Assembly (NCBI GenBank): GCA_964544475.1
Contig: CAZJBS010000007.1
Coordinates: forward strand, 43,741 to 107,740
Direction of reading: 5' to 3'
DNA: 64,000 bases
Source: an uncultured Bacteroidota bacterium
GTDB taxonomy: Bacteria > CLD3 > SB21
The translations under genes were made by a program, and so were the position numbers. Positions within the stretch are counted from its first letter, which is position 1. The number at the start of each line of letters is the position of its first letter. This document shows, piece after piece, positions 10,380 through 29,931 of this stretch. The notes below the pieces were generated by a model that ran no database searches, was not told where the DNA came from, and saw only the letters and a list, made by a program, of their open reading frames with translations.

Positions 10380-11654
10380 TTACGACGCCAGCTTGAGCTG
10401 GAGATGAACCGTGGTGCCTTTTTGCGGTTCGCTTTCAAGGCGAATCGACCCGCCGTGTTTTTCCATGATCTCCTTGCAGATAAACAAACCCAATCCGGTG
10501 CCTTTGCCGGCGCTTTTCGTCGTGAAGAACATTTTGAAAATTTTCTGAAGATGTTCCGGGCTGATGCCCGCGCCCGAATCCCGAATCACCAGACGGACAT
10601 CGCCCGGGCCGTCTCGTTCTTCGGCAATTTCGACGGTGCCCTTTCCTTCAATCGCCTCCAGCGCATTTTGCAGTACGTTGACCAGTACGTGCTCCAGCTG
10701 GCCACGATCGCCCTGCACAAACAGCGCCGGATTCTGAATGCGGTTGACGATGGATATCGACTTCTTTTTGTTAAGGGTTTCCACGAGGCTCACCGCATGC
10801 CGCACAATATCCGCAAGATTGATCCTGGCAAATTGTATGCTTTCGGTGCGCGCATAAAGCCGCACCTGGCTTACCAGTTCGAGCGTCTGGTTAAGATATT
10901 GCCTCATCATCGCCAGTTCCTTCTGGGTCATGTCGTCCGAATGCCGTTTTTGAAGAACGTCCATGATGCCGGAGATGACGCCCAGAGGATTGGCGATACC
11001 ATGAATCAGCATGCTCGACAGAAGTCCGAGCGTCGAGACTTTGTTGGAGACAACCACCTGATTCAGGTAGTTCTGCAGTTTGTCGTTGACGGCCTGCAAT
11101 TCACGGTTGGCGCGCATGAACATCTGGTTCTTCTTGGAAAGGGCGTCTGCAAAGCGGTACAGTTGCTCCGTTCGTTTCTGAACCAGTTTCTCCAGGCCGT
11201 CGCGGTATTCCTTGTTTTCCTTTTTCAGAAGATAAATATCATTGGCCCGATGGATGGCCATCTCCAGAATATCCGGATCGACGGGTTTGGTGATGTAATC
11301 CGCCGCGCCGGCCTTCATGGCTTCGATGACGGTCGCCATGTCCATCACGCCCGTCACCATGATCACCAGCGTCAAAGGATGCCGTTCTTTGATGCGACGG
11401 AGCGCATCCACACCGTTCATCTCGGGCATGCGAATGTCGCACAAGACGAGTTCGAATGGCCAGTCGTCCAGCCGGGCTTCAAATTGTCCGGCATCCTCGA
11501 GCGTCGTGGCGTGGTAGCCCATGTCGGTCGCAAGACTTGCGAGCATGGATCGTACGGACGATTCGTCGTCGATGATCAGGATATGTCGTATACCGGTTTC
11601 GGCGGGATTCGTGACGGGTTTGAATTGATCCGGAAAAAGCACATCGGTCATCAT
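10380..11654 (-). CDS. Hybrid histidine kinase: REC - HisKA - HATPase_c (no obvious sensing domain)
   Basis: The track ORF extends to 11747, probably from a non-ATG start. A likely start is ATG-ATG at 11654 (MMTDVLFP...), preceded by GGAG that overlaps the TAA stop of the upstream gene (GGAGTAAGGCCATGATG). Receiver signature ILIIDDESSVR...LVLCDIRMPEMNG is present. H-box reads ISGIMDVLQKRH (weak) and the ATPase motif is GKGTGLGLFICKEI. Its stop is 3 nt from the stop of the convergent gene ending at 10376. Confidence 0.8.
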   Translation of the reverse strand: MMTDVLFPDQFKPVTNPAETGIRHILIIDDESSVRSMLASLATDMGYHATTLEDAGQFEARLDDWPFELVLCDIRMPEMNGVDALRRIKERHPLTLVIMVTGVMDMATVIEAMKAGAADYITKPVDPDILEMAIHRANDIYLLKKENKEYRDGLEKLVQKRTEQLYRFADALSKKNQMFMRANRELQAVNDKLQNYLNQVVVSNKVSTLGLLSSMLIHGIANPLGVISGIMDVLQKRHSDDMTQKELAMMRQYLNQTLELVSQVRLYARTESIQFARINLADIVRHAVSLVETLNKKKSISIVNRIQNPALFVQGDRGQLEHVLVNVLQNALEAIEGKGTVEIAEERDGPGDVRLVIRDSGAGISPEHLQKIFKMFFTTKSAGKGTGLGLFICKEIMEKHGGSIRLESEPQKGTTVHLQLKLAS

Positions 11655-11658
11655 GGCC

Positions 11659-13107
11659 TTACTCCAATCCGAATTCTTTGATTTTTCCAAGGAGGCTTTT
11701 GTAATCCACATCCAACAGGCGGGAGACTTCGCTTTTGTTCCCGTCACACAACTCCAGCGCCCGGCGGATGGCTTCTTTTTCAGCTTCCTTGCGTATGTCT
11801 TTCAACGTCTGCAGGCCTGAGGCGGGCGCCGCGGACGTCACACCGGCCTTGAAGACCGATTGGGAATCAAAAATCAGATGTTCCTCGTTGATCTCGGCAT
11901 CCGCCATGAGCACGGCCCGGCGTATGACGTTTTTTAATTCACGTACGTTGCCCGGCCACTGGTAATGAATGAGTTGTTCGAGCGCACGCTTGTGGATATG
12001 GCCCACTTCTTTTTCGAGTTCCGCGTTGGCTTCCCGGATGAACCGGTTGGTGAGAAAAATGATATCTTCACGCCGGTTGCGAAGCGCGGGGAGATAGACG
12101 GTGAATTCATTGAGCCGGTAAAACAGGTCGAGCCGGAATTTCCCGCTCTTGATGGCGTCCTCAAGGGGAAGATTGGTCGCACACAGGACCCGGATATTGA
12201 TATCGATCGGGGTCGTGCCGCCGATGCGCATGATTTTGCGTTCCTGAAGCGCGCGCAGCAGCTTACCCTGGATTTCGATGGGAATGTTCGCGATTTCGTC
12301 GAGGAAGAGCGTACCGTCGTGGGCGGTTTCGAACAGACCGTCTTTTCGCCGGTCGGCGCCGGTGAATGCGCCCCGTTCGTATCCGAACAATTCGCTTTCG
12401 ATCAACGTGGAGGGAATCGCGCCGCAATCCACGGCCACAAAGGGTTTCGTCTTTCGCGGGCTCATTTCGTGAATGGCGCGCGCAATCACTTCCTTGCCGG
12501 TTCCGCTTTCACCCTGGATCAGCACGCTGAGGTTGGTGGCGGCCACTTTTTCGGCATTGGCCTGAACCTGCCGGATTTCTTCGCTCATCCCCATGATCTG
12601 GGCAAGATGGCTCCGGCTCTGGAGTTTGGAGCGCAGCGCCTGCACTTCCGAAACGAGGTTCTGATGTTGAATGGCCCTCTCGACCGTGATCTGCAATTCC
12701 TCTGCCGAACACGGTTTAAGAAGGTAATTGAACGCGCCGGATCGGACGGCTTCAACCACGTTGCGCGTGTCGCCGTGCGCCGTCAGCATGATGACCTCCA
12801 CCGCCGGCAGGTGTTTCTTGATTCGCTTCAGAATGGTCAGGCCGTCCATCTTGTCGGGAATGTTGAGATCCAGAAGTACGAGTTCCGGAAAATTTTCGGC
12901 CAATTCGTTGAAATCATCAAAAAAATCCTCTCCACAGGCGTACTCTTTGATGTCGTAGAGGTCGGCATCCAGGTATTGGCGGATGATGTAACGCATACCG
13001 CCTTCGTCGTCGATCACGGCGATCCGGCTTTTTTCCACTTCGCTGGCCATAGCGTTTGGCAGGTTGGGTATGGAAGGATGGAATTTGTAGGTAATATAGT
13101 CGGCCAT
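11659..13107 (-). CDS. Sigma54-dependent response regulator (NtrC/PilR-type enhancer-binding protein: REC + AAA+ sigma54-interaction + Fis-type HTH)
   Basis: Receiver domain (IAVIDDEGGMRY...VLLDLNIPDKMDG). Walker A GESGTGKE and the GAFTGA motif (ERGAFTGA) are present. A C-terminal HTH (EVSRLLDVDYKSLLGKIKEF) is present. Its position in a type IV pilus operon suggests a PilR-like role. An alternative start is ATG 13050 (MASEVEK...). Confidence 0.85.
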   Translation of the reverse strand: MADYITYKFHPSIPNLPNAMASEVEKSRIAVIDDEGGMRYIIRQYLDADLYDIKEYACGEDFFDDFNELAENFPELVLLDLNIPDKMDGLTILKRIKKHLPAVEVIMLTAHGDTRNVVEAVRSGAFNYLLKPCSAEELQITVERAIQHQNLVSEVQALRSKLQSRSHLAQIMGMSEEIRQVQANAEKVAATNLSVLIQGESGTGKEVIARAIHEMSPRKTKPFVAVDCGAIPSTLIESELFGYERGAFTGADRRKDGLFETAHDGTLFLDEIANIPIEIQGKLLRALQERKIMRIGGTTPIDINIRVLCATNLPLEDAIKSGKFRLDLFYRLNEFTVYLPALRNRREDIIFLTNRFIREANAELEKEVGHIHKRALEQLIHYQWPGNVRELKNVIRRAVLMADAEINEEHLIFDSQSVFKAGVTSAAPASGLQTLKDIRKEAEKEAIRRALELCDGNKSEVSRLLDVDYKSLLGKIKEFGLE

Positions 13108-13131
13108 GGCCCAAAATGCAAAGTTTAGAAG

Positions 13132-14178
13132 TCAGGTGGTGAACATCGTGGGATCGTGCGATTCACGCCGGGCGTCCGCCGTGGTGATCCAGCCTTTGCG
13201 GCAGGCCTCGATCAGGGATTGATCGAGCGTCTGCATATGATATTGCCCGCCGGTCTGAATGGCCGAATAGACCTGGTGGGTCTTGTTCTCCCGGATCAGG
13301 TGTCGTACGGCCGGCGTCGCGATGAGGATTTCATCGACGGCCACGCGCCCGTGACCGTCCGCCCGCTTCAACAGGCGCTGGGCGACGACGCCTTCGAGGG
13401 TATTGGCCAGCATGGTACGAATCTGCTGCTGTTGGTCCCCGGGAAACACGTCGATGATACGGTCGACGGTCTCGGCCGCACTTTTCGTATGCAGCGTGGC
13501 GAAGACCAGGTGACCGGTCTCCGCCGCCGTGATGGCCAGCGCAATCGTTTCCAAATCCCGCATTTCGCCCACGAGAATGACGTCCGGATCTTCGCGCAAG
13601 GCGCTTCGCAACGCATTGGCAAAGGATCGCGTATGGGCCTGCAATTCCCGTTGATTGATGAGACAGTTCTTCGGCGTGTGCGTGTACTCGATGGGGTCTT
13701 CAATTGTCAGAATATGATCGTGGCGCTCGGTATTGATCAGATCGACCATGCCGGCCAGCGTCGTGGATTTTCCGGAACCGGTCGGCCCCGTAACCACAAC
13801 GAGGCCTTTTTTCAGCCGGGCCAATTCATACAACCCCCCGGGCATATTCAACTCATCCAGCGAAAAAATCTTCATTGGAATCGTTCGAAACGCGGCGCCA
13901 ATGCCGCGCATTTGCTGAAACAGATTCACGCGAAATCGTGACAAACCCGGCATTTCATAGGCAAAATCCAGTTCGAGGGTCTTTTCAAACTGGTCCGTTT
14001 GTTCTTCGGTGAGCATCGCCAACAGCGCCTTGGACAACTGATGCGGATCGAGAGCGGCGGTTTCCAGCGCTTCGAGGTCGCCGTGCCGGCGCATGAGAGG
14101 CGTGTGGCCAGCCGTCAGGTGTACATCGGACGCGCCTTGCCGAATCGCCAGCGCCAAATATTCATCAATGGTTTTCAT
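13132..14178 (-). CDS. pilT: Type IV pilus retraction ATPase PilT
   Basis: 348 aa with Walker A GPTGSGKSTT. PilT/GspE-family Asp/His boxes and the motif ATLHT are present. The ATG overlaps the pilQ stop (ATGA). Confidence 0.9.
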   Translation of the reverse strand: MKTIDEYLALAIRQGASDVHLTAGHTPLMRRHGDLEALETAALDPHQLSKALLAMLTEEQTDQFEKTLELDFAYEMPGLSRFRVNLFQQMRGIGAAFRTIPMKIFSLDELNMPGGLYELARLKKGLVVVTGPTGSGKSTTLAGMVDLINTERHDHILTIEDPIEYTHTPKNCLINQRELQAHTRSFANALRSALREDPDVILVGEMRDLETIALAITAAETGHLVFATLHTKSAAETVDRIIDVFPGDQQQQIRTMLANTLEGVVAQRLLKRADGHGRVAVDEILIATPAVRHLIRENKTHQVYSAIQTGGQYHMQTLDQSLIEACRKGWITTADARRESHDPTMFTT

Positions 14179-15503
14179 AACGCGCCGGAACCTGTCCCTA
14201 TCAAACGCGGTGTGATAAAGATCAACAAATCGGTTTTCTTCTTTTCCTTGCCCGAGTTCGTGAACAATCTCCCCAGCAACGGGATATCGCCAAGCAACCA
14301 GACTTTTTCCTTGGTATCCACTTCGACCTCCTTCAAAAGTCCGCCGATAACGATCGACTCATCATGCCGCACGACGACCTGCGTCTTGGCGTATCGCTTG
14401 GAGATGATCGGCTGGCGGTTGTCGCCGGAACCGGTGTAGCCGATGATGTCCTCGATCGTCGGCTCGATCATCAGGCTGATCATCGAATCCGGATTGACGC
14501 GAGGCGTGACTCGGAGACTCACGTTCACATTTTTGTCCGTATAAGTGATGATATCGCCGGCCACGCTTCGGCTGATCGTCTGGATGGGGATGGTCGTGCC
14601 GACCGACAGTTCCGCTCTCTGGTTGTCCAGGGTCAGGATCTTCGGATTTGACAGCAATTTCGAATTCGTCTTGGTTTTCAGAAAATTCAGTGAAAACGTC
14701 AGACGATCGACCGAGAGCTTGCCCATGATGATATTCTGGAGTTTGTCTTCCAGCGGCGCCAGAGCCGTGAAATCCGTCTGGCTGTTGGGGTCGTCCGGAT
14801 TGCGGGCATCGAAGGTTTTGCCGGTGACCGCCGTCGGCAGGCCGACGCCGACTTTCTGATTGTTATCCAGCGTGGTCTCATACATGCGGACTTCGATCAT
14901 CAATTGATCCAACGGGCGATCCAGCATCTGCATAACCGAATCGATGACCGCCATCCGGAATGACGCGTCCGAAACCACCAGGAGGTTGGAACGTTTTTCT
15001 TCCGACGTCCCGTTGCGGGAGCGGCACATGGCTCCCATTTTGCCCCTCTTGGATAGGAAAGGCGACAGCGTTTCCTTGATATCCAGAGCGTCGGCGTACT
15101 TCAATTCGTAAACCCGTGTCGCCACCGTTGCGTTGCGTTCGGTTTCAATGGGTTTGACAAAAATGATGTCTCTTTCGATATAGTAGTCGTAGCCATTCGC
15201 TTTGAGGATGGTTTCCAGCGCCTCGTCAAGCGTGACGTCGTCAAAATGCACCGTGACCTTGCCCTTGACGTCGTGGCTGGCAACCAGATTGAGGTGATTT
15301 TGTTTGGACAAGAGGCGCAGTACGCCGAGGATATCGGCATCCCGGAAACTCATGGATAGTTTCGGCCGTGTGCTGTCCGCTTCCGCCACCTGGGCATGGC
15401 CGCCTTGAAACAAAGGCACAAGCAGGAGACCCATCCACACAACGACGGCCCATTCCATGGCCCGGACCGAACCGGCGGTTTCGCGGCATTTTCGCTTGTT
15501 CAT
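14175..15503 (-). CDS. pilQ: Type IV pilus secretin PilQ
   Basis: Signal peptide MEWAVVVWMGLLLVPLF. Secretin C-domain motifs VIGGLLKE...LLGDIPLLGRLF...LLIFITPRLI are present. The ATG overlaps the pilP stop (ATGA). Confidence 0.85.
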   Translation of the reverse strand: MNKRKCRETAGSVRAMEWAVVVWMGLLLVPLFQGGHAQVAEADSTRPKLSMSFRDADILGVLRLLSKQNHLNLVASHDVKGKVTVHFDDVTLDEALETILKANGYDYYIERDIIFVKPIETERNATVATRVYELKYADALDIKETLSPFLSKRGKMGAMCRSRNGTSEEKRSNLLVVSDASFRMAVIDSVMQMLDRPLDQLMIEVRMYETTLDNNQKVGVGLPTAVTGKTFDARNPDDPNSQTDFTALAPLEDKLQNIIMGKLSVDRLTFSLNFLKTKTNSKLLSNPKILTLDNQRAELSVGTTIPIQTISRSVAGDIITYTDKNVNVSLRVTPRVNPDSMISLMIEPTIEDIIGYTGSGDNRQPIISKRYAKTQVVVRHDESIVIGGLLKEVEVDTKEKVWLLGDIPLLGRLFTNSGKEKKKTDLLIFITPRLIGTGSGAL

Positions 15504-15991
15504 AAAGTCTCCTCGTCGGGCAATGACAATGTAAAAGTGAAATCATCTTTCTTGAGAACAACTTCGGTGGAACGGATCGCGACGACGCGGTAGCCGTGAA
15601 TCGACTCGCCGGTTGCCACAATCTGATCATTGATGAGGGCGTAGGCCTGACGGCCGTCGTGCGATACCGCCGTCAGTTCCAGATCGACGAGTCTGGGCAG
15701 CAGGATTTTTTGCAAAGCCTTGCCAATAAAATTTGCCGACGCGGCTTCGGGGTACTTTCGGAATGGATCCCGGCGCCAGCCTGCCACGGCTATGGTGGGC
15801 GGCGCGCCCGCCGTTTGGATTCCCGATTCCCGGACCGGAGCGGTCATTTCAGTGGTCACAGCAGCCGCCGATTCTTTCGCCGGAGCCACCGGCCTTGGCT
15901 TGGCGGTCACGCGATCATATACCGCATAGGCAGCGATGATGGCCAGGATGATCAGGAGCCGTTTTTGCGATTTGGACATCGGTTTTGACAT
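15500..15991 (-). CDS. pilP: PilP-like pilus assembly protein
   Basis: 163 aa with an N-terminal hydrophobic anchor (RLLIILAIIAAYAVY), a Pro/Ala-rich linker and a C-terminal beta domain. It lies between the PilO-like gene and pilQ. Confidence 0.6.
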   Translation of the reverse strand: MSKPMSKSQKRLLIILAIIAAYAVYDRVTAKPRPVAPAKESAAAVTTEMTAPVRESGIQTAGAPPTIAVAGWRRDPFRKYPEAASANFIGKALQKILLPRLVDLELTAVSHDGRQAYALINDQIVATGESIHGYRVVAIRSTEVVLKKDDFTFTLSLPDEETL

Positions 15992-16001: not shown

Positions 16002-16556
16002 CTATCGTTTTGACGCCGGTTGCATTCGCACCCGGGCCAGGGTTTCTATGATCAGTTCTTCATCGGATGCTTCACGAACCATATTAAAATCCGTGAAACG
16101 GATGGTAAACGGCAGTTCGTCCAGATGTTCCAGCATCATGCCGAAATCCAGATAGCGTCCGCTGAAAGTCAATGAGAGCGGCAATTCAAAACTGGACGAG
16201 GACGTTCGCAGGCCGGCTATGAGAGAATCCGTCGAAAACGCCAGCTGCCCGATGCGCACGTGGTATTGAGCGGCCAGCTGGCTCAACGTTTTCATGGCCC
16301 GGGACAGGCTGTCCGGCTCAAGGATCCGTTTTCGCAATTCAACGACTCTCGTCTCCGCGTCACGGCATCGCATCAGGAGAGACGGGATATCGCGAACCCG
16401 GCTGATGGTTTCATTAATACGCGCATCGGTCTCAACCATCGAGGCCTGCAACTCGTTGACGTCGCGAAGGGCCGGCAACCATCCAAAAATCGTGTAGGCA
16501 GTTGCCGTCGATATCCCCATCGCAACCAGTATCCAGAATGTCAGGACGTTTTTCAT
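16002..16556 (-). CDS. pilO: PilO-like pilus assembly protein
   Basis: 184 aa with an N-terminal TM (LTFWILVAMGISTATAYTIFGWL) followed by coiled-coil. Its start overlaps the pilMN stop (ATGA). Confidence 0.65.
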   Translation of the reverse strand: MKNVLTFWILVAMGISTATAYTIFGWLPALRDVNELQASMVETDARINETISRVRDIPSLLMRCRDAETRVVELRKRILEPDSLSRAMKTLSQLAAQYHVRIGQLAFSTDSLIAGLRTSSSSFELPLSLTFSGRYLDFGMMLEHLDELPFTIRFTDFNMVREASDEELIIETLARVRMQPASKR

Positions 16557-18514
16557 GGCGTGTTCTTTTTTGGCGCAACAAGTTCAAAATAGGTCACATC
16601 GGCTTCCGGATCATGGCGTTTCTCCCGGAGCCGGATTTCCCCGAAAAAGGACGCTTTTTCGAGGGCATTGATGAAATTCAGTAAATGGACGTCGGCGAAA
16701 AACACGTCCAGATAAACGGCCCCTCGTACACGGAAGGCCATGGAGTCGCCGCTCGTGGCCGTCACCATGCCGTTGTTCTTCATGCGGGCCTGGCTTTCCA
16801 GACGCCGCCGTTCGATCTCGTTGAAGGACTGCCCCCAACTCACCCGGTCGATCACAATTTCTTTTGGCGTGACGGCGCTCAATATTCGCATGACGGACGC
16901 CATGGTCGAATCCGGCTGTGTTTCTTTCCTGAGGACACTCTCAGCGGCCTGCCATCGCCTGTATTGACGGTTGAGATCCTCATAAACCTGGCGGCGTTCG
17001 TTCATCGCATCCAACGAGGCGCTCATCCGGTCGCGAATTCCCTCCACGTCCAGTTTTCGGCGTTGCAGCAAAAAAGCCGTCGTGCCGATGGTGATGAGAA
17101 GCACCAGAAGGCCGGTGACCGCCCTGGATACCGTGCGTCGATATCGCCATTCCGTCTTCAGGTTTTCAGGGAGAAAACTGAAATCTGAAGAGCGGGATAG
17201 CGCCGAGCCGATGGTGTCCGCCATGGATGTATCCATCGCACGTCCTGACTTGTCGTCCGGACCGGCCATCGTGAGGAATTCCATCTTATGACCGATTTCC
17301 GTTTCCAAATACTGGCGGAGGCCCTTCAAACGACGGCCATTTCCGGTCAACCAGATCCGGTCGAATTGGTCTGCCTTGAATTGCTCCCTGTAGTAATCCA
17401 TCGACAGCCGGATTTCCGACAATAGCTTTTCGGCCACCGGACGCATCATTACACCGACTTCCGCATAAGGTATGTCGTGCGGCGTTTTCTCTTCGGATGA
17501 TTCGGGGGCCAGACCGACTTCCCTTTTGACAGACTCGGCCTCGCTTTCGCTCAGTGTGTGGGAGGACTGACCCACAAAAATCGTCTGCGTCAGCGCCTTC
17601 GTGAAGTGACGCCCGCCGGTCGGAATTTCGCGGGCGAACTGCAGAGACCCGTTGCCGTAGAACGTCACATGCGTACTATCCAGTCCGATATCCACCACAC
17701 ACCGGACACCTCCGGTTTCAGGCAGCAGCCGCACGAGATTCCATTGCGCCACCGGTCGGATGATCAACTTTGCGGCCAGGATCCCGGCCCGGTCAAGTAT
17801 GGCGAGATGACGTTTGATCGACTCTTCCTTGACGGCGACGACCATGACATGGAATTCATTGTCGGCTTTATCTTCATCCAGGATGACATAGTGTAACACC
17901 GTAGGAGCGTCGTTGAAAAAATGAAGTTCCTTTTTGTTTTTCCACAGAAGGGCGTCGTGAATCTCTTTTTTTGACACTTTCGGTATCCGCAGGAGACGGA
18001 TATTCATGTCGTGACCGGGCAAAATCGACGACACCGGCGCCGGGCCCGCTTTCAGGCGGCGCATAATCTGCTTCAGCCGTTGCGACACCATCAGGACATC
18101 CTCGGCCGCTCCCGGCTCCAACGGTTCTTCAATGGTGGCCATCACGTCCTGTCGCCGGCCCCACCGCCGGACTTTGGCGGCACGTATCGCGCTATTGGTG
18201 ATTTCCAATCCCACCGTCGTGCGGGCAGCCATCCGCTGCCACCACGCCAATCCACCCGCGGGCGCGAGATCCGTTTCCGGACAGTCGGCATCCAATGGAT
18301 TGGAAATCATCGGTCTCTCTTCAACCGGAGCCCGTTTCAGTTCCTGCTCATGAGCGGCAAGAAATTCTTCCACGGTTCGGTCGGATCCGTTGGATCGGTC
18401 CTGCGATTCCTTTTCCGTTTCCTCGGAGATCCCGCCCGACACGATGGCCTTCATCAATAACATGCTGGCCGGGTTGGCGGCCTCCGCGGTTTGGTTTCGT
18501 CGATCGTCAAACAT
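16553..18514 (-). CDS. pilMN: Fused PilM-PilN (actin-like ATPase fused to TM/coiled-coil PilN), with a possible ~95-aa N-terminal extension
   Basis: The PilM-like core begins MAARTTVGLEITNSAIRAAKV and contains VVDIGLDSTHVTFY. The PilN-like part (TEWRYRRTVSRAVTGLLVLLITIGTTAFLLQRRKL + coiled coil) is in the same ORF with no intervening stop. The ATG at 18514 overlaps the last codons of the ExeA-like gene (ATGTTTGA). An alternative internal start is 18232. Confidence 0.75.
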   Translation of the reverse strand: MFDDRRNQTAEAANPASMLLMKAIVSGGISEETEKESQDRSNGSDRTVEEFLAAHEQELKRAPVEERPMISNPLDADCPETDLAPAGGLAWWQRMAARTTVGLEITNSAIRAAKVRRWGRRQDVMATIEEPLEPGAAEDVLMVSQRLKQIMRRLKAGPAPVSSILPGHDMNIRLLRIPKVSKKEIHDALLWKNKKELHFFNDAPTVLHYVILDEDKADNEFHVMVVAVKEESIKRHLAILDRAGILAAKLIIRPVAQWNLVRLLPETGGVRCVVDIGLDSTHVTFYGNGSLQFAREIPTGGRHFTKALTQTIFVGQSSHTLSESEAESVKREVGLAPESSEEKTPHDIPYAEVGVMMRPVAEKLLSEIRLSMDYYREQFKADQFDRIWLTGNGRRLKGLRQYLETEIGHKMEFLTMAGPDDKSGRAMDTSMADTIGSALSRSSDFSFLPENLKTEWRYRRTVSRAVTGLLVLLITIGTTAFLLQRRKLDVEGIRDRMSASLDAMNERRQVYEDLNRQYRRWQAAESVLRKETQPDSTMASVMRILSAVTPKEIVIDRVSWGQSFNEIERRRLESQARMKNNGMVTATSGDSMAFRVRGAVYLDVFFADVHLLNFINALEKASFFGEIRLREKRHDPEADVTYFELVAPKKNTP

Positions 18515-22901: not shown

Positions 22902-23285
22902 TCAACTCTGCGTCAGCCATGTGACGATCTGTACCGCCGAAATCAAATCATGGGACACTCGGACCGTCACCTCGGCATAGGCCACTCCGGAAAATGTCTT
23001 TCCGGCGGTCACAATGGTAGTGGTTCGCGTGTATCCGCCGGCCAGATTCTCCGCGGCATAACGCCCGGGCGTTGTAACCCACGAGTAGCCCCGGCTCGGG
23101 GACATCTTGTCGGCGGTAATGTCCTCCAATTTCTGTTCACATAGCGCCAGAGCCCTGGATTCGATTTCATACGTTGCGCTGTGCAGAAAGGTATAGCTGT
23201 ACAAATCCACCAGGGCGGGCACGGTAATGCCGACAAACAACAGCGTCGTGATGATCTCCAGCGTGGAATAACCTTTTTCATTCAT
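22902..23285 (-). CDS. Type IV minor pilin (PilV-like)
   Basis: An internal ATG at 23285 gives MNEKG|YSTLEIITTLLFVGITV (Gly-1, Glu+5). The track ORF extends to 23360 and overlaps pilC. Confidence 0.65.
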   Translation of the reverse strand: MNEKGYSTLEIITTLLFVGITVPALVDLYSYTFLHSATYEIESRALALCEQKLEDITADKMSPSRGYSWVTTPGRYAAENLAGGYTRTTTIVTAGKTFSGVAYAEVTVRVSHDLISAVQIVTWLTQS

Positions 23286-23301: not shown

Positions 23302-24513
23302 TTAGTGTTTACCCATGTGGCCCAACATGTCCCACATCGGCATGAATATCGCCAACGCAATGAAGAGTATCGCGCCGCCCAGCAAAACGGTAATCATCGG
23401 CTCGATCAAGGTGGTCAGATTCTTGACCGTGTGATCGACCTCTTCGTCGTAGTATTCGGCAATATTGGTCATCATCGTGTCGAGCGAGCCGGATTTTTCG
23501 CCGATCGCAATCATTTGCACGACGATGGCCGGAAAGATCCGGCTCTTGCGCAATGGCTGGGCCAGACCCTGGCCGTCCTTCACACCATTGAGCGCCCGGT
23601 AAACTTCATCCGTCACGACGCTGTTCCCGATGGTTTGCGCGATGATGGTCAGGGTCTGGATGATCGGCAACCCGCTGCGATTGAGAGTCTCAAACGTTTT
23701 CGAAAACCGCGACAGATACGTCTTGACATTCAACTCACCGAAAACCGGAAGGTGCAGTTTGCGTTCGTCCCACCATCGGCGTCCTCTCGGCGTCCTCATG
23801 AAATAGCGCAGGCCGATCAGCAAGGCCACCGCCGCCGGTATGACGATCATCCAGTACTGCGTGATCGCCGTATTGATCCCGATCAGAATCTGGGTCGGCA
23901 GGGGCAGGTCAACTTTCATTCGTTTGAAAATGTCAACGAATTTGGGCACGACCATGACAATCAGAACGACAAACGCAATCAGGATGCCGAAAAGGACCAT
24001 GATGGGATAACGCGTGGCTTTTTTGATGTTTTGGCGGATTTCCATATCGTGGGACAGAAAAGAAACCAGCCGCAAGAGCACTTCATCCAGTACGCCGCCG
24101 GTTTCACCCACCTTGATCATGCTGACATACAGATCCGAAAAGGCCTCCTTATGGGGTTTCAAGGCGTCGCACAGGGGTTTGCCGCTTTGAATGTCGCCGC
24201 TGACCTTCTTCAGGATGACCCGCATCGATTCCGAGGCCGCCTGCTCCTCCAGCGCCTGGAGACAGCCCAATAAGGGTACGCCCGCCTTGAACAGCGTCGC
24301 AAACTGTTTCGTGAATACGATGACTTCCTTGGGATCGATTTTCTTCTTGGAAAAGGCGCCGGCGAAGAGGCCGGGCCGGACTTCGGAGATTTGAAGTGGA
24401 AGGTAATTCAGACGATCCAGATACTCGGTGACAAATCCGATGTTCGGCGCTTCGATTTTGTCGACGACGACCTGCCCGGTGTGGTTGATGGCGCGGAACT
24501 GAAAATGGGACAT
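23302..24513 (-). CDS. pilC: Type IV pilus inner-membrane platform protein PilC (GspF family)
   Basis: ATG at 24513 is preceded by AAGGAG (ggattaaaggagacgccATG). It contains two GspF-type repeats and three TM segments; its sequence is typical of PilC. Confidence 0.9.
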   Translation of the reverse strand: MSHFQFRAINHTGQVVVDKIEAPNIGFVTEYLDRLNYLPLQISEVRPGLFAGAFSKKKIDPKEVIVFTKQFATLFKAGVPLLGCLQALEEQAASESMRVILKKVSGDIQSGKPLCDALKPHKEAFSDLYVSMIKVGETGGVLDEVLLRLVSFLSHDMEIRQNIKKATRYPIMVLFGILIAFVVLIVMVVPKFVDIFKRMKVDLPLPTQILIGINTAITQYWMIVIPAAVALLIGLRYFMRTPRGRRWWDERKLHLPVFGELNVKTYLSRFSKTFETLNRSGLPIIQTLTIIAQTIGNSVVTDEVYRALNGVKDGQGLAQPLRKSRIFPAIVVQMIAIGEKSGSLDTMMTNIAEYYDEEVDHTVKNLTTLIEPMITVLLGGAILFIALAIFMPMWDMLGHMGKH

Positions 24514-24523: not shown

Positions 24524-26227
24524 TTAATCCTGGGTGACCCGGACGACTTCTTCAATGGACGTCAGTCCCTGAAGAACCTTCGCCACGCCGTCCTGGCGGA
24601 GGGTGCGCATGCCGTTTTCGATGGCCGCGTCTTTGAGACGGCTGGAAGAAGCGCGGGTCATCGTCAGTTCTTTGATCTCCTCATTGACAATGAGCAGTTC
24701 GTAGATGGCCAGCCGGCCGCGGTAGCCCTTGTCGTGGCAAGCCGGACAGCCCGCCGGTTTATGAAAAGTATACGAACGGCCGTTCTGCAAATTGAGCGAC
24801 TTGACCATCGCGTCATTTGGCGCATAGGGTTGCCGGCATTTTGGGCACAACCTCCTCACCAGTCTCTGAGCCAGTACACCGGAAAGGGCCGAGGCCGTCA
24901 GAAACGGCTCGATGCCCATGTCGGTCAGCCGGTTGATGGCGCTCGGGGCATCGTTGGTGTGGAGCGTTGAAAAAACCAAATGGCCGGTTAAAGCCGACTC
25001 CACGGCGATGTGCGCCGTTTCCTGGTCCCGGATTTCACCCACCATGATCACATCGGGATCCTGCCGCAGGATGGACCTCAGACCTGTCGCAAATGACAGC
25101 CCGATTTTGGCATTGATCTGGCATTGGCGGATCGTGTCCAGCCGGTATTCAATGGGATCTTCAACGGTGATAATGTTCTTGTCGATGGAGTTGATCGAAC
25201 TCAACGCCGAGTAGAGCGTCGTGGTTTTTCCGCTGCCGGTCGGGCCCGTGACCAGAATGATGCCGTTGGGACGGCGGATCAGTTGTTCAAAAAACACAAA
25301 CGTGTTCCTGTCAAATCCGAGTTCCTGAAGACTGACGGTCACAGAGCCTTTATCCAGAATCCTCAGCACAATATTCTCCCCATTGATCGTCGGAAACGAA
25401 GAAATACGGAAATCGATCGTTCGCGAACCGATGCGGGTTTGAAACCGGCCATCCTGGGGCAGCCGTTTTTCGGCAATGTCCAGTCCGGACATGATCTTGA
25501 ACCTTGAAATCAGCGCCGACTGCAGATGCTTGTCCAGAACGAATGATTCCTTCATGAGGCCGTCCACACGGAACCTCACCAGCAGGTTCCTTTCTTCCGG
25601 CTCAATATGAATATCACTGGCCCCTTCGCGGACTGCCGCTGCCACGATCACGTTGGACAACCGGATGATCGGGGTGTCCTTCGCCGCTTCTTCCAACTGT
25701 TCCCGGCTTTCCGTCACTTCCTCGACCGTGATCATTTCGACGTCCGCCTGGTAATCCAACACCGCGTCGCGAACTTCGTCCTGATAGGCTTGTGAGGAAT
25801 TCTTGAAAATCCGGCTCAGCGTGTCCTGCAAATCCTGTTCGGAACACAGCATGGGTGAAATGGTCAAACCGGTCAATGACTGAAGTTCGTCAATCACCGC
25901 CAGGTTGCGCGGATCGACCATCGCCACGGTCAATTCGTCTCCAATTTTGAATAACGGAAGCAACTGTTTGGATCGCAGGACGTTTTCGGGCACGAGTTGG
26001 ACCACATCCATGTCGATTTCGAAGGTCGTCAAATCGACCGTCGGCAAATCCAGATGATCCGACAGAATCTGGAGCAGGTCTTCATCTTTTACGAGGCGCT
26101 TTTCCGAAATGATCTTCCCGAGTTTCTTGCCGTTCTTCAGCTGGTGGCTTAGAATTTCCGACAGTTGGCTTTCCGTCACCAGGTTGTTGCTGACCAGCAA
26201 TTGGCCCAATTTGGGATGGACGGGCAC
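24524..26227 (-). CDS. pilB: Type IV pilus assembly ATPase PilB (GspE family)
   Basis: 567 aa with a GspII_E N-terminal domain, Walker A GPTGSGKTTT, and a tetracysteine motif CPKC...CPAC. Confidence 0.9.
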   Translation of the reverse strand: MPVHPKLGQLLVSNNLVTESQLSEILSHQLKNGKKLGKIISEKRLVKDEDLLQILSDHLDLPTVDLTTFEIDMDVVQLVPENVLRSKQLLPLFKIGDELTVAMVDPRNLAVIDELQSLTGLTISPMLCSEQDLQDTLSRIFKNSSQAYQDEVRDAVLDYQADVEMITVEEVTESREQLEEAAKDTPIIRLSNVIVAAAVREGASDIHIEPEERNLLVRFRVDGLMKESFVLDKHLQSALISRFKIMSGLDIAEKRLPQDGRFQTRIGSRTIDFRISSFPTINGENIVLRILDKGSVTVSLQELGFDRNTFVFFEQLIRRPNGIILVTGPTGSGKTTTLYSALSSINSIDKNIITVEDPIEYRLDTIRQCQINAKIGLSFATGLRSILRQDPDVIMVGEIRDQETAHIAVESALTGHLVFSTLHTNDAPSAINRLTDMGIEPFLTASALSGVLAQRLVRRLCPKCRQPYAPNDAMVKSLNLQNGRSYTFHKPAGCPACHDKGYRGRLAIYELLIVNEEIKELTMTRASSSRLKDAAIENGMRTLRQDGVAKVLQGLTSIEEVVRVTQD

Positions 26228-26238
26228 GGGCGGTCGTC

Positions 26239-26667
26239 CTAAACGACCTGCGCCATCGGCGGATACATGCTGGCGACAGGCCGGCCCGCAGGGCGTTTCC
26301 CGGCGATCAGGCTGCCGATCTTGTCCAGGAGTTCCGGCGGATCGTAGGGTTTGTGCATATACGCATCGGCCCCCATTTCCATTCCGGTATGCCGGTCGAT
26401 GTCACGGGCCCGCGAGGTAAGCATGATGATGGGAATGTGGCGGCGCTTTTCGTCCGACTTCAGGAGCCGGCATATTTTGAAACCGTCCATTTTGGGCAAC
26501 AAGACGTCCAGCAGAATGAGGTCCGGACTTTCTGTGCGCGCCTTGAAAAGCCCGTCCAGGCCGTCCGCGCTGGACAGAACCTCATAACCCTCGGACTGCA
26601 AACGCATGGTCAGTACGCGCACGAGATTGGGATAATCATCCACAATCAGTATTCTGGGAATCGGCAT
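26239..26667 (-). CDS. Single-domain response regulator (CheY-like)
   Basis: Begins MPIPRILIVDDYPNLVRVL. Contains LILLDVLLPKMDG and HKPY. It overlaps the upstream kinase by 32 nt. Confidence 0.8.
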   Translation of the reverse strand: MPIPRILIVDDYPNLVRVLTMRLQSEGYEVLSSADGLDGLFKARTESPDLILLDVLLPKMDGFKICRLLKSDEKRRHIPIIMLTSRARDIDRHTGMEMGADAYMHKPYDPPELLDKIGSLIAGKRPAGRPVASMYPPMAQVV

Positions 26668-27868
26668 GATGACGCACCTTTCGTCGTTTTGGAAGAAAAA
26701 TTGTAAATGTACTGCCCCGGCCGTACTCGGATCTCACTTTGATCCGTCCATGATGAAGTCGCACCATTTCCTTCACGATGCTCAAACCCAGGCCGCTGCC
26801 TTTGTCCCGATTGTGGACATGTTCGGCATGATCCAGTTGGGAAAAACGCTTGAACAACTTCCGGATGTCCGATTTCAACATGCCAAAGCCCTCGTCCCGG
26901 ACGGACAATTCGAGGCCGCCGTGTTGCGGCGTGGCCGTGATTTCGATCGTCGTGGATGGCGGCGAATATTTGATGGCATTGTCAAGCAGATTGAACAGCA
27001 TTTGTTTTACGCGATCGGCATCGGCATACAGGTTGTCAATCGCCATCGGAATATTTTCACACAGCGTTATGCGCTTGTTTTTCGCTTTTCTCTCAACCGA
27101 CGTCATTGCCGACCGCACAAGCAGGTGGACGTCGATCCGGGTACGATGCAGACGCGTCTGGCCGGCATCCAGCCGGTTGATTTCCAGCAGATCGCCCACC
27201 AGGCGCGACAGACGATTCGTTTCGTCAAAGGCCACCTGGAGACATTGGCGTTGGGTCGGATTGATGGCGCCGATTCTCTCTTCCAGCATCAGGGACAGGC
27301 TCTCTTTGACCGGCGCCAGCGGATTGAATAATTCATGCGTGACCACGGACAGGAACTCGGATCGTTCACGGGCTTCCGTCCACGACGCGCTGACGTCGCG
27401 AATCAGGAACACGTGACCGATCCGCGTACCGTCCGGATGGCGGATGGCTTTGACGGTGATGTCATAGACAAAGAACGGCCGGCCGGAAACAACCTGATCA
27501 CGAAGTACCGACGGGTGGCGTTGCCGGGCTTTGAGAAGAAGTGGTTCCAGATTGAGCCGGGCGCCGGAAGCGAGTTGCCGCACGGTCGTGATTTCCGGAC
27601 GCGCGTCATCTTCGATCCGAAGCAGTCTGACGGCCCTGGGATTGATGATTCGAACCCGGTCAAGAAGATCGACCAGGACAATACCGGTATCCAGGTGATC
27701 GATGACGGCTGTCGTTTCGGTATGGCATTGACGAATGAGCAGATCATCCATCCGGCTTTCGATCGGAAACCTCCCGTCGGCCGAGGCGTTCGCGGTCAGG
27801 GACTCCGTGCCATGGTTATTCTTGACCGTGACGGGGTTGGGAATCAGTCGTAGTGCGCCGGTCATCAT
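26636..27868 (-). CDS. PAS sensor histidine kinase (HisKA + HATPase_c)
   Basis: H-box FLSVVTHELFNPL. HATPase N-box reads NLLDNAIKYS. G-box motifs are DEGFGM and GSGLGLSIV. Its start lies 10 nt downstream of the pilD stop. Confidence 0.8.
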   Translation of the reverse strand: MMTGALRLIPNPVTVKNNHGTESLTANASADGRFPIESRMDDLLIRQCHTETTAVIDHLDTGIVLVDLLDRVRIINPRAVRLLRIEDDARPEITTVRQLASGARLNLEPLLLKARQRHPSVLRDQVVSGRPFFVYDITVKAIRHPDGTRIGHVFLIRDVSASWTEARERSEFLSVVTHELFNPLAPVKESLSLMLEERIGAINPTQRQCLQVAFDETNRLSRLVGDLLEINRLDAGQTRLHRTRIDVHLLVRSAMTSVERKAKNKRITLCENIPMAIDNLYADADRVKQMLFNLLDNAIKYSPPSTTIEITATPQHGGLELSVRDEGFGMLKSDIRKLFKRFSQLDHAEHVHNRDKGSGLGLSIVKEMVRLHHGRIKVRSEYGRGSTFTIFLPKRRKVRHHADSQNTDCG

Positions 27869-27878
27869 GATCTCCCGG

Positions 27879-28655
27879 TTATCTGTTTACCACGTTGTCC
27901 AAATACCATTGGATAAGGTCCGCTCCAAAGAGAAGACTTCCCATCATGGCCATCGCAAAAAAAGGCGCCATTGGAATTTCCGCCCGGCGATCCAATTTCC
28001 TGAACAGAACGCCGATCCATCCCGCCACCGAAATGAAGAGAAACGTCAGAAACAGGACCATCGCCAGAAGTTTCCAGCCCAGGAAGAGGCCCAGTAAGGC
28101 TGTGAGTTTGATGTCGCCGCCGCCCATGGCGTCTCTCTTATACACGCGACGGCCGACCAATGCGATCCCGGTCATGATGGCGCCCCCCATGACCATACCG
28201 GCCATACCGGCCACCAGAGATGAAACGCCTTCGAGTATCAGGAATCCCACGCCGATCGGCAGGCTGATCAAAAGAAGCCGGTTCGGGATGATATGGCTCC
28301 TGTAATCGATTTCTGACAGGACGATCATCAATAAGGTCAGATAAGCCGATTTGAAAAACAGGATCGTCCACCCAAACTGGCTGTGCAGGAAAACCAGGCA
28401 TAGCGCCGTTGCCAACTCGACCGCCGGATAACGGATAGAAATTTTCTGGCGGCAGGACCCGCAGCGGCCGCCCAGGATCGCGTATCCCCACAATGGGATA
28501 TTGTGGTACCACCGGATCGGTGAACCACAATGCGGGCAATGGGAAGCCGGAAACCACAGCGATTGTCTGAGCGGAATGCGATGAATCACGACGTTCAGAA
28601 AACTGCCCAATAGCAGTCCGGCCGCGGCAATGAGCAAGTCAGGCGACAGACTCAT
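27879..28655 (-). CDS. pilD: Prepilin peptidase PilD (A24 family)
   Basis: Polytopic protein with the zinc-binding CPHCGSPI...CGSCRQ pair. Catalytic Asp contexts are present, including GGGDIKL. Confidence 0.9.
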   Translation of the reverse strand: MSLSPDLLIAAAGLLLGSFLNVVIHRIPLRQSLWFPASHCPHCGSPIRWYHNIPLWGYAILGGRCGSCRQKISIRYPAVELATALCLVFLHSQFGWTILFFKSAYLTLLMIVLSEIDYRSHIIPNRLLLISLPIGVGFLILEGVSSLVAGMAGMVMGGAIMTGIALVGRRVYKRDAMGGGDIKLTALLGLFLGWKLLAMVLFLTFLFISVAGWIGVLFRKLDRRAEIPMAPFFAMAMMGSLLFGADLIQWYLDNVVNR

Positions 28656-29520
28656 AATGGGCGTCCTGGGTTAGCGTGACAAATTGAGATGAGTTTTCCC
28701 TGTAAATACGTTCGATACCAAACGTCGCCTGGAACATGGCCACGTCGAGATTGACGTTTTTCACGCTGAGCAGAGTCAGGATCAATGTGTTTTGAGCCAC
28801 GACCATTTTGTGCGACACCGCCTGCAACGGAAGATCGAAATAAACGGATCCGTTCGCCGATCCGCTCTTGGCATAACGTTCAAGATGCCGGTAGAAGAAT
28901 TTTGCAAACTCCGAATGTTCGCCGCCCCCGGATTGTTCCAGATCCGACAGCGCGGCCACCGGAAGACCGTCCCCCGTGGTAACCACCGCGGCAAACAATC
29001 CGAACTTACGAATGATATTCTGAAGATAGTGTTCAAGCGCCTTGTCCTGCTCCTCCGTCCGACGGCTGCGTCGGTCGAACAGGGAGATCATGCTGCGAAT
29101 CTGTTCGCGCAACTTCTGGCTGGCGCACATCGGATTGGAATGGACACAATAGTTGGCCCGGCAGGCCGTCACCGGCTCACTGCACATCTGGCGCCGATGG
29201 TAATTGGCCGTGGGTTCCATGCGGCTCGTAATAAATTCACGAGCCAACTTACGGTGAAGTGTGTTTTCGGCAAAATCTATGGCCTCGTGCCAAAGGAAAA
29301 TCTGGAGTTCCATCAATTGTTCGACCGTCATCCCCGTCATGATGGAGTCAATGAAATGAGGGTCGGAAATATTCTTTCGGATCTTTTTCAAAAGGTCCCG
29401 GCTGAGCGTGCCCTGCACGAATGATGTCTTGAATTCGGTCAAGGACGCTTCCTTACCGGCCATAGATTCCATATTCAGACTTTGATTAGTCTGGCGGTCG
29501 GTATCTCTCAAGTCGAACAT
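28639..29520 (-). CDS. Hypothetical protein; C-terminal ~110 aa possibly Roadblock/LC7 (MglB-like) fold
   Basis: 293 aa. It contains a Cys cluster CSEPVTACRANYCVHSNPMC. The C-terminal region LFAAVVTTGDGLPVAALSD ... VYFDLPLQAVSHKMVVAQNTLILTLLSV ... has a beta-alpha-beta-beta-alpha pattern reminiscent of Roadblock domains; this was judged by eye only. It overlaps the pilD start by 17 nt. Confidence 0.45.
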   Translation of the reverse strand: MFDLRDTDRQTNQSLNMESMAGKEASLTEFKTSFVQGTLSRDLLKKIRKNISDPHFIDSIMTGMTVEQLMELQIFLWHEAIDFAENTLHRKLAREFITSRMEPTANYHRRQMCSEPVTACRANYCVHSNPMCASQKLREQIRSMISLFDRRSRRTEEQDKALEHYLQNIIRKFGLFAAVVTTGDGLPVAALSDLEQSGGGEHSEFAKFFYRHLERYAKSGSANGSVYFDLPLQAVSHKMVVAQNTLILTLLSVKNVNLDVAMFQATFGIERIYRENSSQFVTLTQDAHYESVA

Positions 29521-29543
29521 GGGAACTCCTCGTTAAGGGTGAC

Positions 29544-29575
29544 CAGGCTCCCATACCATACCGGATGGGAGCCTG
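29544..29575 (-). terminator. Strong hairpin (11-bp stem) 15 nt downstream of pilA stop, no T-run
   Basis: On the minus strand the sequence reads caggctcccat-ccggtatggt-atgggagcctg. It is a candidate attenuator or partial terminator between pilA and downstream genes. Confidence 0.4.
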
Positions 29576-29589
29576 AGTCTTGATGGAAA

Positions 29590-29931
29590 TTAGTGGCCAG
29601 AGACAGAACACGAGACCGTGCCCGTCGTCGAAGAATACGTGTACGTGCCACCGGACGGACACGTGGGATGCGCACCGCTCGCAAAGAGCGTGTCCATGGC
29701 GCTCAGACTTGCCGGAAACGTGGCCGGGCCGCCGGCCAAAGCCGACTGGGCGTAAAATACGCTGGCCGCTGCGCCAATCGCACCCTGATTGGACTTGCAG
29801 GCGCCGGCTTCCGCCTGATCCGTCAAATCGAAATACTTCGGCACCGCGACGGCGGCGAGAATACCCAGGATCACGATGACCGTGACCAACTCCATCAGGG
29901 TGAAGCCTTTTTCATTTTTCATGGATTTCAT
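29590..29931 (-). CDS. pilA: Type IVa major pilin PilA
   Basis: ATG at 29931 is preceded by GGAGGAAG. It gives MKSMKNEKG|FTLMELVTVIVILGILAAVAVPKYFDLT (class III signal peptide, Phe+1, Glu+5). A C-terminal Cys pair is present. The track ORF is extended upstream to 29988. Confidence 0.85.
   Translation of the reverse strand: MKSMKNEKGFTLMELVTVIVILGILAAVAVPKYFDLTDQAEAGACKSNQGAIGAAASVFYAQSALAGGPATFPASLSAMDTLFASGAHPTCPSGGTYTYSSTTGTVSCSVSGH

Follow-up and report, generated by a model that had tools for sequence, protein, structure and literature searches.

On the minus strand of a 64,000-nucleotide (nt) stretch of DNA from an uncultured Bacteroidota bacterium (assembly GCA_964544475.1, contig CAZJBS010000007.1, positions 43,741 to 107,740; hereafter the window), a total of 20 consecutive open reading frames (ORFs) for type IV pilus components and signaling proteins occupy positions 10380-29988, the genes themselves filling 10380-29931 (19.5 kb). 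The locus raises the question of whether such an array is transcribed as one giant operon, as proposed in an initial annotation, and which machine it encodes. The reading favored here, with moderate confidence, is that the locus is a supercluster, conserved among relatives, that encodes a retractile type IVa-like pilus and consists of two separable modules and a regulatory pair, all tied together by sigma54 control and probably by cyclic di-GMP (c-di-GMP). With respect to transcription, the array looks, from its conserved sequence signals, like three or four separately promoted units and not like one giant operon. The gene content and order given by the initial annotation, about 20 consecutive minus-strand genes with a sigma54 activator at the 3' end, were borne out.

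The genes are, in the order of transcription, pilA (major prepilin), the gene for a Cys4-Roadblock protein, pilD (prepilin peptidase), genes for a histidine kinase (HK) and a response regulator (RR), pilB (extension ATPase), pilC (platform protein), genes for two minor pilins, for a large PilX-like protein, for a small acidic protein and for a GGDEF-domain diguanylate cyclase, exeA (ExeA/MshM-like ATPase), pilMN (fused pilM and pilN), pilO, pilP, pilQ (secretin), pilT (retraction ATPase), and the genes for the enhancer-binding protein (EBP; the sigma54 activator) and for REC-HK (a hybrid kinase with receiver domain REC). All ORFs were translated, candidate starts and upstream sequences were tabulated, and the proteins were scanned against Pfam and NCBIfam with the curated cut-offs. 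When the most plausible starts are taken, no more than 16 nt separate the genes at 16 of the 19 junctions, seven of these being overlaps. The overlaps quoted by the initial annotation were found as given (4-nt ATGA at pilP/pilQ, pilQ/pilT, pilMN/pilO and GGDEF/exeA, 8 nt at exeA/pilMN and 32 nt at HK/RR), and only its wording of the EBP/REC-HK junction was slightly off, the sequence being GGAGTAAGGCCATG with a gap of 4 nt. Tight translational coupling, as claimed there, is plausible within the blocks of overlapping or nearly abutting genes. Three longer gaps had gone unmentioned: pilA is followed by a gap of 69 nt, minor pilin 2 and the PilX-like gene are 232 nt apart, and pilT is separated from EBP by 81 nt (24 nt if EBP were to start at 13107 instead of the ATG at 13050 that corresponds to the start in relatives).

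Two of the signals in and around the array are of the sigma54 type (Table 1). The first is located upstream of pilA, where the string CGGCAYGrrkrTTG[A/T] is present 50-90 nt before the gene in six of six loci, the other flanking DNA having diverged. The second is located within the 232-nt gap, and its GG-N10-GC is kept in the window and nine related loci (L003, L005, L006, L009, L011, L014, L018, L021 and, before the GGDEF gene, L012), among which L009 and L018 duplicate L003; a further contig, L001, is identical to the window. The sigma54 pattern is matched nine times in the window versus 3.1 matches expected, and the sole two intergenic matches on the coding strand within the array are these two promoters. 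A match within pilC (23975-23989) was set aside, the coding sequence around it being conserved and the next start codon being about 690 nt away. Two further minus-strand matches are found elsewhere in the window, one at 42062-42076, 41 nt before the membrane-fusion gene of a TolC-MFP-AcrB efflux operon, and the other at 58256-58270, about 82 nt before the gene for a 615-amino-acid (aa) DUF6252 protein. Small-ORF listing gave no conserved ORF in the 232-nt gap, and no Rfam family reached its gathering threshold anywhere in the window, with no c-di-GMP riboswitch in this gap or before pilA.

The remaining two gaps carry signals of other types. Before EBP, the housekeeping-type sequence TTTG(C/G)(A/T)-N18/19-TATATT is present in eight loci (the window and seven related ones). 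From the sequence, the EBP start is most likely the ATG at 13050; the start at 13107 was rejected because the stretch lies inside this conserved promoter and the relatives start later, alignments with the different loci beginning between residues 5 and 25 of the long ORF. Behind pilA, a strong hairpin is present in six of six loci (the window and five relatives), followed by a T-run in three of the relatives and without a T-run in the window copy. It is probably a partial terminator or a transcript stabilizer, and a hairpin with partial termination is usual behind a highly expressed pilin gene. In addition, the inverted repeat TATGG-N7-CCATA, with at most one mismatch, is present 70-120 nt upstream in 9 of 14 sigma54 promoters versus 1.3% of random 130-nt windows, which is suggestive and makes it a plausible candidate for the activator-binding site. 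In the window, besides the copy listed in Table 1, a related string is located upstream of pilA at 30051-30074.

The modules are physically separable. In two metagenome-assembled genomes (L012 and L014), the second half of the array is found alone, broken off at the gap with the sigma54 promoter, which is retained even though the upstream pilus genes are absent. The neighbors of this standalone half are unrelated genes, namely Cas6, a PAS kinase and OmdA in one genome and GlnE, NAD synthase and an extracytoplasmic function (ECF) sigma factor in the other. These observations bear directly on the view of the initial annotation, in which the whole 19.5-kb array is one polycistronic super-operon, expressed from a single promoter upstream of pilA with translational coupling. 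Such a view accounts well for the location of all 20 genes on one strand, the tight packing of the junctions, the lack of a strong intrinsic terminator inside the array of the window (where the pilA hairpin has no T-run), and the absence of the internal gap from L022. It is considered unlikely, since exactly the three long gaps are the ones that carry conserved signals, promoter motifs among them, in lineages with otherwise diverged intergenic sequence, since terminator-like hairpins with T-runs stand behind pilA in three relatives, and since the second half forms an independent locus with its own promoter in L012 and L014. The packing of the 20 genes stands; a single transcription unit is not supported.

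Some points count against separately promoted units under sigma54 control. At the pilA promoter the GG and TTG are kept, but the C of the -12 element is replaced by A or T to give TTGA or TTGT, while TTGC is near-invariant at the sigma54 -12 element. The two window copies of the candidate activator site match poorly, with 2 and 4 mismatches. L022 has neither the internal gap nor a recognizable internal promoter; the two-unit layout is therefore not universal, and fusion of the units also occurs. Lastly, read-through across all the gaps could give very long mRNAs.

Conservation of the locus was analyzed by gene calls on related contigs and by searching 14 loci with the 20 window proteins (tblastn). 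The order from pilA to REC-HK is the same in L003/L018, L005+L019, L006/L020, L009, L011, L021 and L022, i.e., it is conserved in about ten related loci at 40-85% protein identity. This is the comparison of synteny that the initial annotation had proposed, and its claim that the embedded signaling genes (HK-RR, GGDEF, and EBP with REC-HK) belong to the locus held. The genes upstream of pilA differ from genome to genome (ssb and M13 peptidase, a restriction-modification system, an ABC transporter, G6PD, a Por-tail protein), so that the conserved block begins, at its 5' end, with pilA. Conservation of the order across diverged loci makes HK-RR, the cyclase, the ExeA-like ATPase and the Cys4-Roadblock gene integral to the system rather than passengers. 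That HK-RR, GGDEF and Cys4-Roadblock are passengers without functional link to the pilus is very improbable: the lack of any family-level assignment of these proteins to a pilus function would fit such a proposal, but they keep the same positions, with overlapping or abutting junctions, in about ten loci with outer flanks differing everywhere, the active site of the cyclase is invariant, and the partner ATPase carries a c-di-GMP motif.

Protein identity across the related loci is 29-53% for PilMN, PilO and PilP versus 68-85% for PilB, PilC, PilQ, PilT and EBP. In L005 (GCA_037445875.1), a 794-aa PilQ-PilT 'fusion' at 10091-12475 was rejected as an assembly artefact spanning an N run in the scaffold. 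The carriers are metagenomes or metagenome-assembled genomes labelled 'bacterium' or 'Bacteroidota bacterium', one ENA contig being named p_CLD3; in GTDB, CLD3 is the placeholder name of a phylum with about ten genomes, which come from wastewater and bioreactor samples (PMC11382960). Window proteins also occur as exact copies on Logan assemblies, and an identical Cys4-Roadblock protein also has an NCBI source.

Profile searches had been proposed in the initial annotation as a check on its labels, and with Pfam and NCBIfam most of the labels pass the cut-offs: 14 of the 20 are backed by a family model (pilD, HK, RR, pilB, pilC, GGDEF, pilO, pilQ, pilT, EBP, REC-HK, the PilM half of pilMN, and the prepilin motif of pilA and minor pilin 2). 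Five ORFs (Roadblock-like, PilX-like, small acidic, minor pilin 1 and pilP) gave no specific match to a Pfam or NCBIfam family, and the labels Roadblock-like and PilX-like are supported by predicted folds only.

PilB, PilC and PilD are all above the Pfam cut-offs. Among the equivalog models, pilB passes GspE (632.8 versus cut-off 630.25) and narrowly misses PilB (637 versus 675.65), while the best models for pilC (GspF and Thermus PilC) and for pilA (GspG and Myxococcus PilA) stay below their cut-offs, pilA itself passing Pfam N_methyl (33.8 bits) and TIGR02532. For the extension ATPase, the platform protein and the pilin, models of the type II secretion system (T2SS) and of type IV pili give roughly equal scores. 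A retraction ATPase of the PilT/PilU family is present (TIGR01420), and pilT follows pilQ in every relative whose sequence extends that far. Within the alignment complex and secretin, PilM_2 (66.8 bits), PilO and Secretin pass in Pfam, and no model of PilN or PilP was matched in Pfam or NCBIfam. The fused PilMN, with 24 homologues in 5.8 billion proteins, gives TIGR01175 at 108.8 (cut-off 133) and a weak T2SSL match, its PilN half being assigned from the transmembrane (TM) helix and the position in the fusion; likewise, the PilP label comes from the position of a protein kept in all relatives. The equivalog scores of the secretin are 237.6 for PilQ (cut-off 284.35), 226 for GspD and 115 for MshL (cut-off 250.2), all below cut-offs. 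The class III signal (G-1, F+1, E+5) is carried by pilA (KG/FTLME, the slash marking the end of the leader), together with the minor pilins G/YSTLE and G/FTLIE, and the large pilin-like protein lacks E5. Minor pilin 1 is kept in relatives at 52-64% identity.

With the mannose-sensitive hemagglutinin (MSHA) pilus, the locus has the MshM-like, MshI-like and MshEN traits in common; it is not of the MSHA type with respect to the MshL score, which is below those of PilQ and GspD, the absence of a TPR gene, and the gene order. A T2SS, or a T2SS-like pseudopilus that secretes proteins and forms no surface pilus, is an alternative suggested by the narrow pass of pilB at the GspE cut-off with its failure at the PilB cut-off, by GspF and GspG as best equivalogs of the platform protein and the major pilin, and by the PilM-PilN fusion, which has the GspL architecture. 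It is judged improbable. T2SS are not known to possess PilT, while here a PilT/PilU-family ATPase passes its cut-off, overlaps pilQ and is kept in the relatives; the top score of the secretin is with the PilQ model; the GspF, GspG and GspD matches remain under their cut-offs, with GspE marginally above; and three minor pilins are present instead of GspH-I-J-K, the large one bearing an adhesin-like beta-helix. A retractile type IVa-like pilus, and not a T2SS, is therefore favored by three features: a conserved PilT encoded within the array, a secretin that leans to PilQ, and a minor pilin resembling an adhesin.

In an AlphaFold2 (AF2) model of the PilX-like protein (predicted local distance difference test [pLDDT] 81), a long pilin alpha1 helix is followed by a small sheet and a right-handed beta-helix. 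The protein, with 21 homologues in a protein-index search, is best described from this model as a modular minor pilin, and the beta-helix makes it a likely tip adhesin. The ExeA-like ATPase passes the generic AAA_22 model (61.4 bits versus 27), the closest specific model, TIGR03015, reaching 149.5 versus its cut-off of 324.5; a PDB sequence search gave generic AAA+ matches alone, such as ORC1 and Hsp104. Among the related loci, L006/L007, the closest relative, is the only one to keep the small acidic ORF (41% identity, E 8e-22).

A c-di-GMP layer is indicated at two points of the array. The cyclase (GGDEF 171 bits, TIGR00254 195 bits) carries the active-site string DVDHFK...RVCDMECRYGGEEF in the window and 10 related loci, the RVCDMECRYGGEEF part being invariant or nearly so, and its GGEEF, RxxD I-site and DxDxF metal site, the motifs of an active diguanylate cyclase, are kept in 11 loci. 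The N-terminus of PilB matches the c-di-GMP motif NF053729 at residues 6-57 (47.7 bits versus cut-off 38), with tandem 24-residue repeats KLGxx[LI][LIV]...L..[IL]LS..[QL] separated by LKNGK and kept in five relatives, and fits the definition of the MshEN receptor domain (PMC8669469). In V. cholerae, binding of c-di-GMP to MshE promotes MSHA pilus production (PMC4624765), and in E. coli the MshEN protein NfrB is the local target of a dedicated cyclase (PMC8669469). By analogy with these systems, the simplest reading is that the in-operon cyclase would control PilB-driven extension. Two features fit this reading less well: no c-di-GMP phosphodiesterase or PilZ protein was found within the cluster, and the consensus of the 24-residue MshEN motif reportedly has Gly at position 10, which in each PilB motif is replaced by N, K, R or Q.

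The regulatory pair at the 3' end consists of EBP, with the GAFTGA motif of sigma54 activators, and REC-HK. The best equivalogs of EBP (AtoC, PEP-CTERM RR and NtrC) are all below cut-offs. The HisKA score of REC-HK (24.4 bits) is just under the cut-off of 26.9, and its sole hydrophobic stretch, residues 94-113, lies within the REC domain. Relatives of HK give weak PAS matches. A plausible transmembrane sensor is found in neither kinase, and EBP is located about 17 kb away from pilA; as both kinases are soluble, there is no PilS-type pilin sensor here. Convergent to REC-HK, a gene for a REC protein of about 146 aa and one for a hybrid kinase of 1142 aa are located, with 3 nt between the stop codon of the latter and that of REC-HK. 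L005 also has a convergent PAS kinase beside REC-HK, L006 has a convergent gene that lacks an annotation, and in L008 and L009 tblastn gave convergent matches to the kinase and REC protein. This pair may be an upstream input into the circuit. A further PAS kinase is located at 2696-5980.

The protein encoded next to pilA is lineage-specific. Its Roadblock fold is predicted from an AF2 model (pLDDT 67, 21-sequence alignment), and 22 homologues were identified by protein-index search. A C-x6-C-x4-C-x6-C pattern is invariant in the N-terminal half, within a helical domain of about 110 aa (residues about 40-150). A profile search of 1.84 billion representatives gave 77 matches, about five of them full-length; elsewhere, the Cys4 domain either makes up a whole protein of 110-150 aa or immediately follows REC at the C-terminal end of proteins of 390-770 aa (proteins P0073-P0143). 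No Pfam or NCBIfam model covers this domain, the carrier proteins returning REC alone, and a profile scan of metagenome contigs with the Cys4-Roadblock protein matched 57 stretches, none of which was confirmed. Judging from its position behind REC, the Cys4 domain is a candidate for an undescribed response-regulator output domain, perhaps metal-binding. The protein differs from MglB and other Roadblock/LC7 proteins (PDB 6hjm, 3t1r) in having this extra N-terminal domain and in giving no sequence-level match to Pfam Robl_LC7, and no MglA-like GTPase was noticed among the genes examined.

From these features the following wiring is proposed. The sigma54-type promoter would express pilA, and some transcripts would pass the hairpin into the Cys4-Roadblock gene, pilD, HK, RR, pilB, pilC and the two minor pilin genes. 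The second sigma54 promoter, in the 232-nt gap, would express the genes for the beta-helix minor pilin, the acidic protein, the cyclase and the ExeA-like ATPase, followed by pilMN, pilO, pilP, pilQ and pilT. The activator and its REC-kinase partner would be expressed independently from the TTTGCA-N18-TATATT promoter, and the phosphorylated activator would turn on both sigma54 units, possibly through the TATGG-N7-CCATA site upstream. c-di-GMP made by the in-cluster cyclase would then act on the MshE-type motif at the N-terminus of PilB and favor pilus extension, as in Vibrio MshE; PilT would retract the pilus, and the beta-helix minor pilin would serve as tip adhesin. In this wiring, the gene identities, the conserved order, the conserved promoter and terminator motifs, the intact motifs for catalysis and binding, and the separability of the two modules are observed, whereas the pairing of activator and promoters, the read-through at the hairpin, the signaling from the cyclase to PilB, and the roles of HK-RR and the Cys4-Roadblock protein are inferred.

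Table 1. Genes and sequence signals of the pilus locus and its convergent neighbor, listed by position in the window. A slash marks the end of a prepilin leader.
Feature	Coordinates	Strand	Remarks
Convergent REC protein and PAS-rich hybrid kinase with two REC domains	6490..10376	+	gene calls on L001, Pfam
REC-HK, soluble hybrid kinase	10380..11654	-	Response_reg 95 bits, HATPase_c 102 bits; 4 nt after EBP
EBP, sigma54 response regulator	11659..13050	-	REC + AAA+ (GAFTGA) + HTH_8; Sigma54_activat 232 bits
Housekeeping-type promoter before EBP	13093..13122	-	TTTGCA-N18-TATATT; consensus scan
pilT, retraction ATPase	13132..14178	-	TIGR01420 475.7 bits versus cut-off 319.1; 4-nt overlap with pilQ
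pilQ, secretin	14175..15503	-	442 aa; Secretin 153 bits, STN 39 bits
PilP-position protein	15500..15991	-	163 aa; N-terminal TM helix, C-terminal beta domain; weak CdsD_C/SctD match
pilO	16002..16556	-	Pfam PilO 25 bits versus cut-off 22
Fused PilM-PilN	16553..18514	-	653 aa; GspL/MshI-like architecture; one TM helix, residues 462-484
ExeA/MshM-like P-loop ATPase	18507..19340	-	277 aa; GDVGTGKTT and IDEGQ motifs
Diguanylate cyclase	19337..20785	-	482 aa; weakly GAF-like N-terminal region and GGDEF domain; GGEEF, RxxD I-site
Small acidic ORF	20769..21146	-	125 aa, pI 5.2; no family matches
Large minor pilin ('PilX-like')	21157..22152	-	331 aa; predicted pilin alpha1 helix without E5, small beta-sheet, right-handed beta-helix module
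Internal sigma54 promoter	22178..22192	-	CGGTACGGGTATTGC, GG-N10-GC; in 232-nt gap, 25 nt before PilX-like start codon
Candidate activator-binding site	22267..22286	-	half-match to TATGG-N7-CCATA, about 90 nt upstream of internal sigma54 promoter
Minor pilin 2	22385..22897	-	170 aa; G/FTLIE; N_methyl 27.8 bits
Minor pilin 1	22902..23285	-	127 aa; G/YSTLE prepilin motif and TM helix read from sequence; no family match
pilC, platform protein	23302..24513	-	T2SSF x2, 189 bits
pilB, extension ATPase	24524..26227	-	T2SSE 471 bits, MshEN 79 bits
RR, single-domain response regulator	26239..26667	-	REC only, 142 aa; overlaps HK gene by 32 nt
HK, cytoplasmic histidine kinase	26636..27868	-	HisKA + HATPase_c; no TM segment
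pilD, prepilin peptidase	27879..28655	-	A24_N_bact 112 bits, Peptidase_A24 65 bits; 17-nt overlap with preceding gene
Cys4-Roadblock protein	28639..29520	-	helical Cys4 domain (C113-x6-C120-x4-C125-x6-C132) and C-terminal domain of predicted Roadblock/LC7 fold; lineage-specific
Hairpin after pilA stop	29544..29575	-	11 bp, GC-rich; RNAfold -32 kcal/mol for intergenic region
pilA, major prepilin	29590..29931	-	113 aa; leader MKSMKNEKG/FTLME, E at +5; GGAGG 7 nt before ATG
Sigma54-type promoter before pilA	29982..29996	-	CGGCACGGATGTTGA; -24 GG present; -12 element TTGA, not TTGC

Directly upstream of the pilA promoter region, an ssb gene is located at 30169-30513 (minus strand) with a clean intrinsic terminator at 30104-30135 (minus strand; 14-bp stem and T-run), and ssb is also near pilA in L020. 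The remainder of the window consists of housekeeping or unrelated genes such as those for RND efflux, a methyl-accepting chemotaxis protein, Suf proteins, a SpoIIE phosphatase and a multiheme cytochrome. The cytochrome is a c7/c3-like protein at 34330-35715 (plus strand), and the chemotaxis protein is of the dCache-HAMP type at 45068-47182 (minus strand), with no che genes among the ORFs examined. A tRNA scan found none.

One-locus pilus clusters are already known from Myxococcus and from Vibrio MSHA. The premise of the initial annotation that pilus loci are usually split is correct for most Proteobacteria, but single-locus clusters of more than 15 type IVa pilus genes are documented for Myxococcus, Bdellovibrionales and Desulfuromonadales, two-component systems being embedded in such clusters of Myxococcus and some other former Deltaproteobacteria, the pil cluster of M. 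xanthus having 17 such genes in one locus, including those for PilS-PilR and PilS2-PilR2 (PMC6060248). Like that cluster, the present one combines nearly all core genes (pilA, B, C, D, M, N, O, P, Q and T) with a PilR-type sigma54 activator in one locus; several transcription units are encoded in that cluster, and probably in the present one. It differs from the M. xanthus cluster in the fusion of PilM and PilN, the minor pilins inside the locus, the soluble nature of both kinases, the location of the activator at the 3' end far from pilA, the absence of the pilGHI ABC-transporter genes, and the embedded diguanylate cyclase, ExeA-like ATPase and Cys4-Roadblock protein.

The MSHA locus of V. 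cholerae (16.7 kb; two operons, mshI-F and mshB-Q; PMC4624765) is comparable in size and likewise has two modules, an ExeA-like ATPase (MshM) and a GspL-like fused inner-membrane protein (MshI). In Vibrio, however, cyclases and PilT are encoded elsewhere, whereas here they are inside the locus; the pilin, peptidase, ATPase and platform genes come first and the alignment complex and secretin second; the secretin leans to PilQ (237.6) and GspD (226) against 115 bits for MshL; no MshN TPR protein is present; and sigma54 control would be exerted through an in-locus EBP. The genetic coupling of a dedicated cyclase to an MshEN-domain c-di-GMP effector resembles NfrB-DgcJ of E. coli (PMC8669469), where the effector is a glycosyltransferase and direct protein contact was shown, while the predicted effector here is a pilus ATPase. 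A type IV pilus operon with an embedded diguanylate cyclase was not found in a narrow search of the open-access literature.

Control of pilA by PilS-PilR, in which PilS is a kinase with six TM segments, is the paradigm in Pseudomonas and Myxococcus. The present locus is similar in having a sigma54 activator of the REC-AAA+-HTH type and in that its major pilin gene is immediately preceded by a promoter of the sigma54 type, but differs in that the partner kinase is the soluble REC-HK, that a second sigma54 promoter would serve the assembly, secretin and retraction genes, and that the regulator pair has its own conserved housekeeping-type promoter.

What is different here is the combination, in a barely studied lineage, of minor pilins, PilT, an ExeA-like ATPase, a cyclase, a Cys4-Roadblock protein and a 3'-terminal activator that would drive two sigma54 promoters. 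A bolder proposal, held only tentatively and on balance doubtful, is that the locus forms a self-contained decision circuit for pilus deployment, undescribed as a unit, in which one activator acting on two sigma54 promoters would set the amounts of pilin and machine, the cyclase would signal locally to the MshEN-type PilB, and the Cys4-Roadblock protein would couple a redox or metal cue to pilin processing and extension. For the annotation of such loci, the lesson is that tight packing on the same strand alone does not make one operon, and that the conserved promoters in the few longer gaps set the units. The Cys4 domain, as a candidate for a new two-component output domain, is the most novel by-product. 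If the proposed wiring is true, this small uncultured group from wastewater and bioreactor samples would carry structure, assembly, retraction, and transcriptional and second-messenger control of a pilus together on 19.5 kb, an unusually complete set, and the locus would be a compact candidate for heterologous reconstitution and for tests of local c-di-GMP signaling from a cyclase to PilB.

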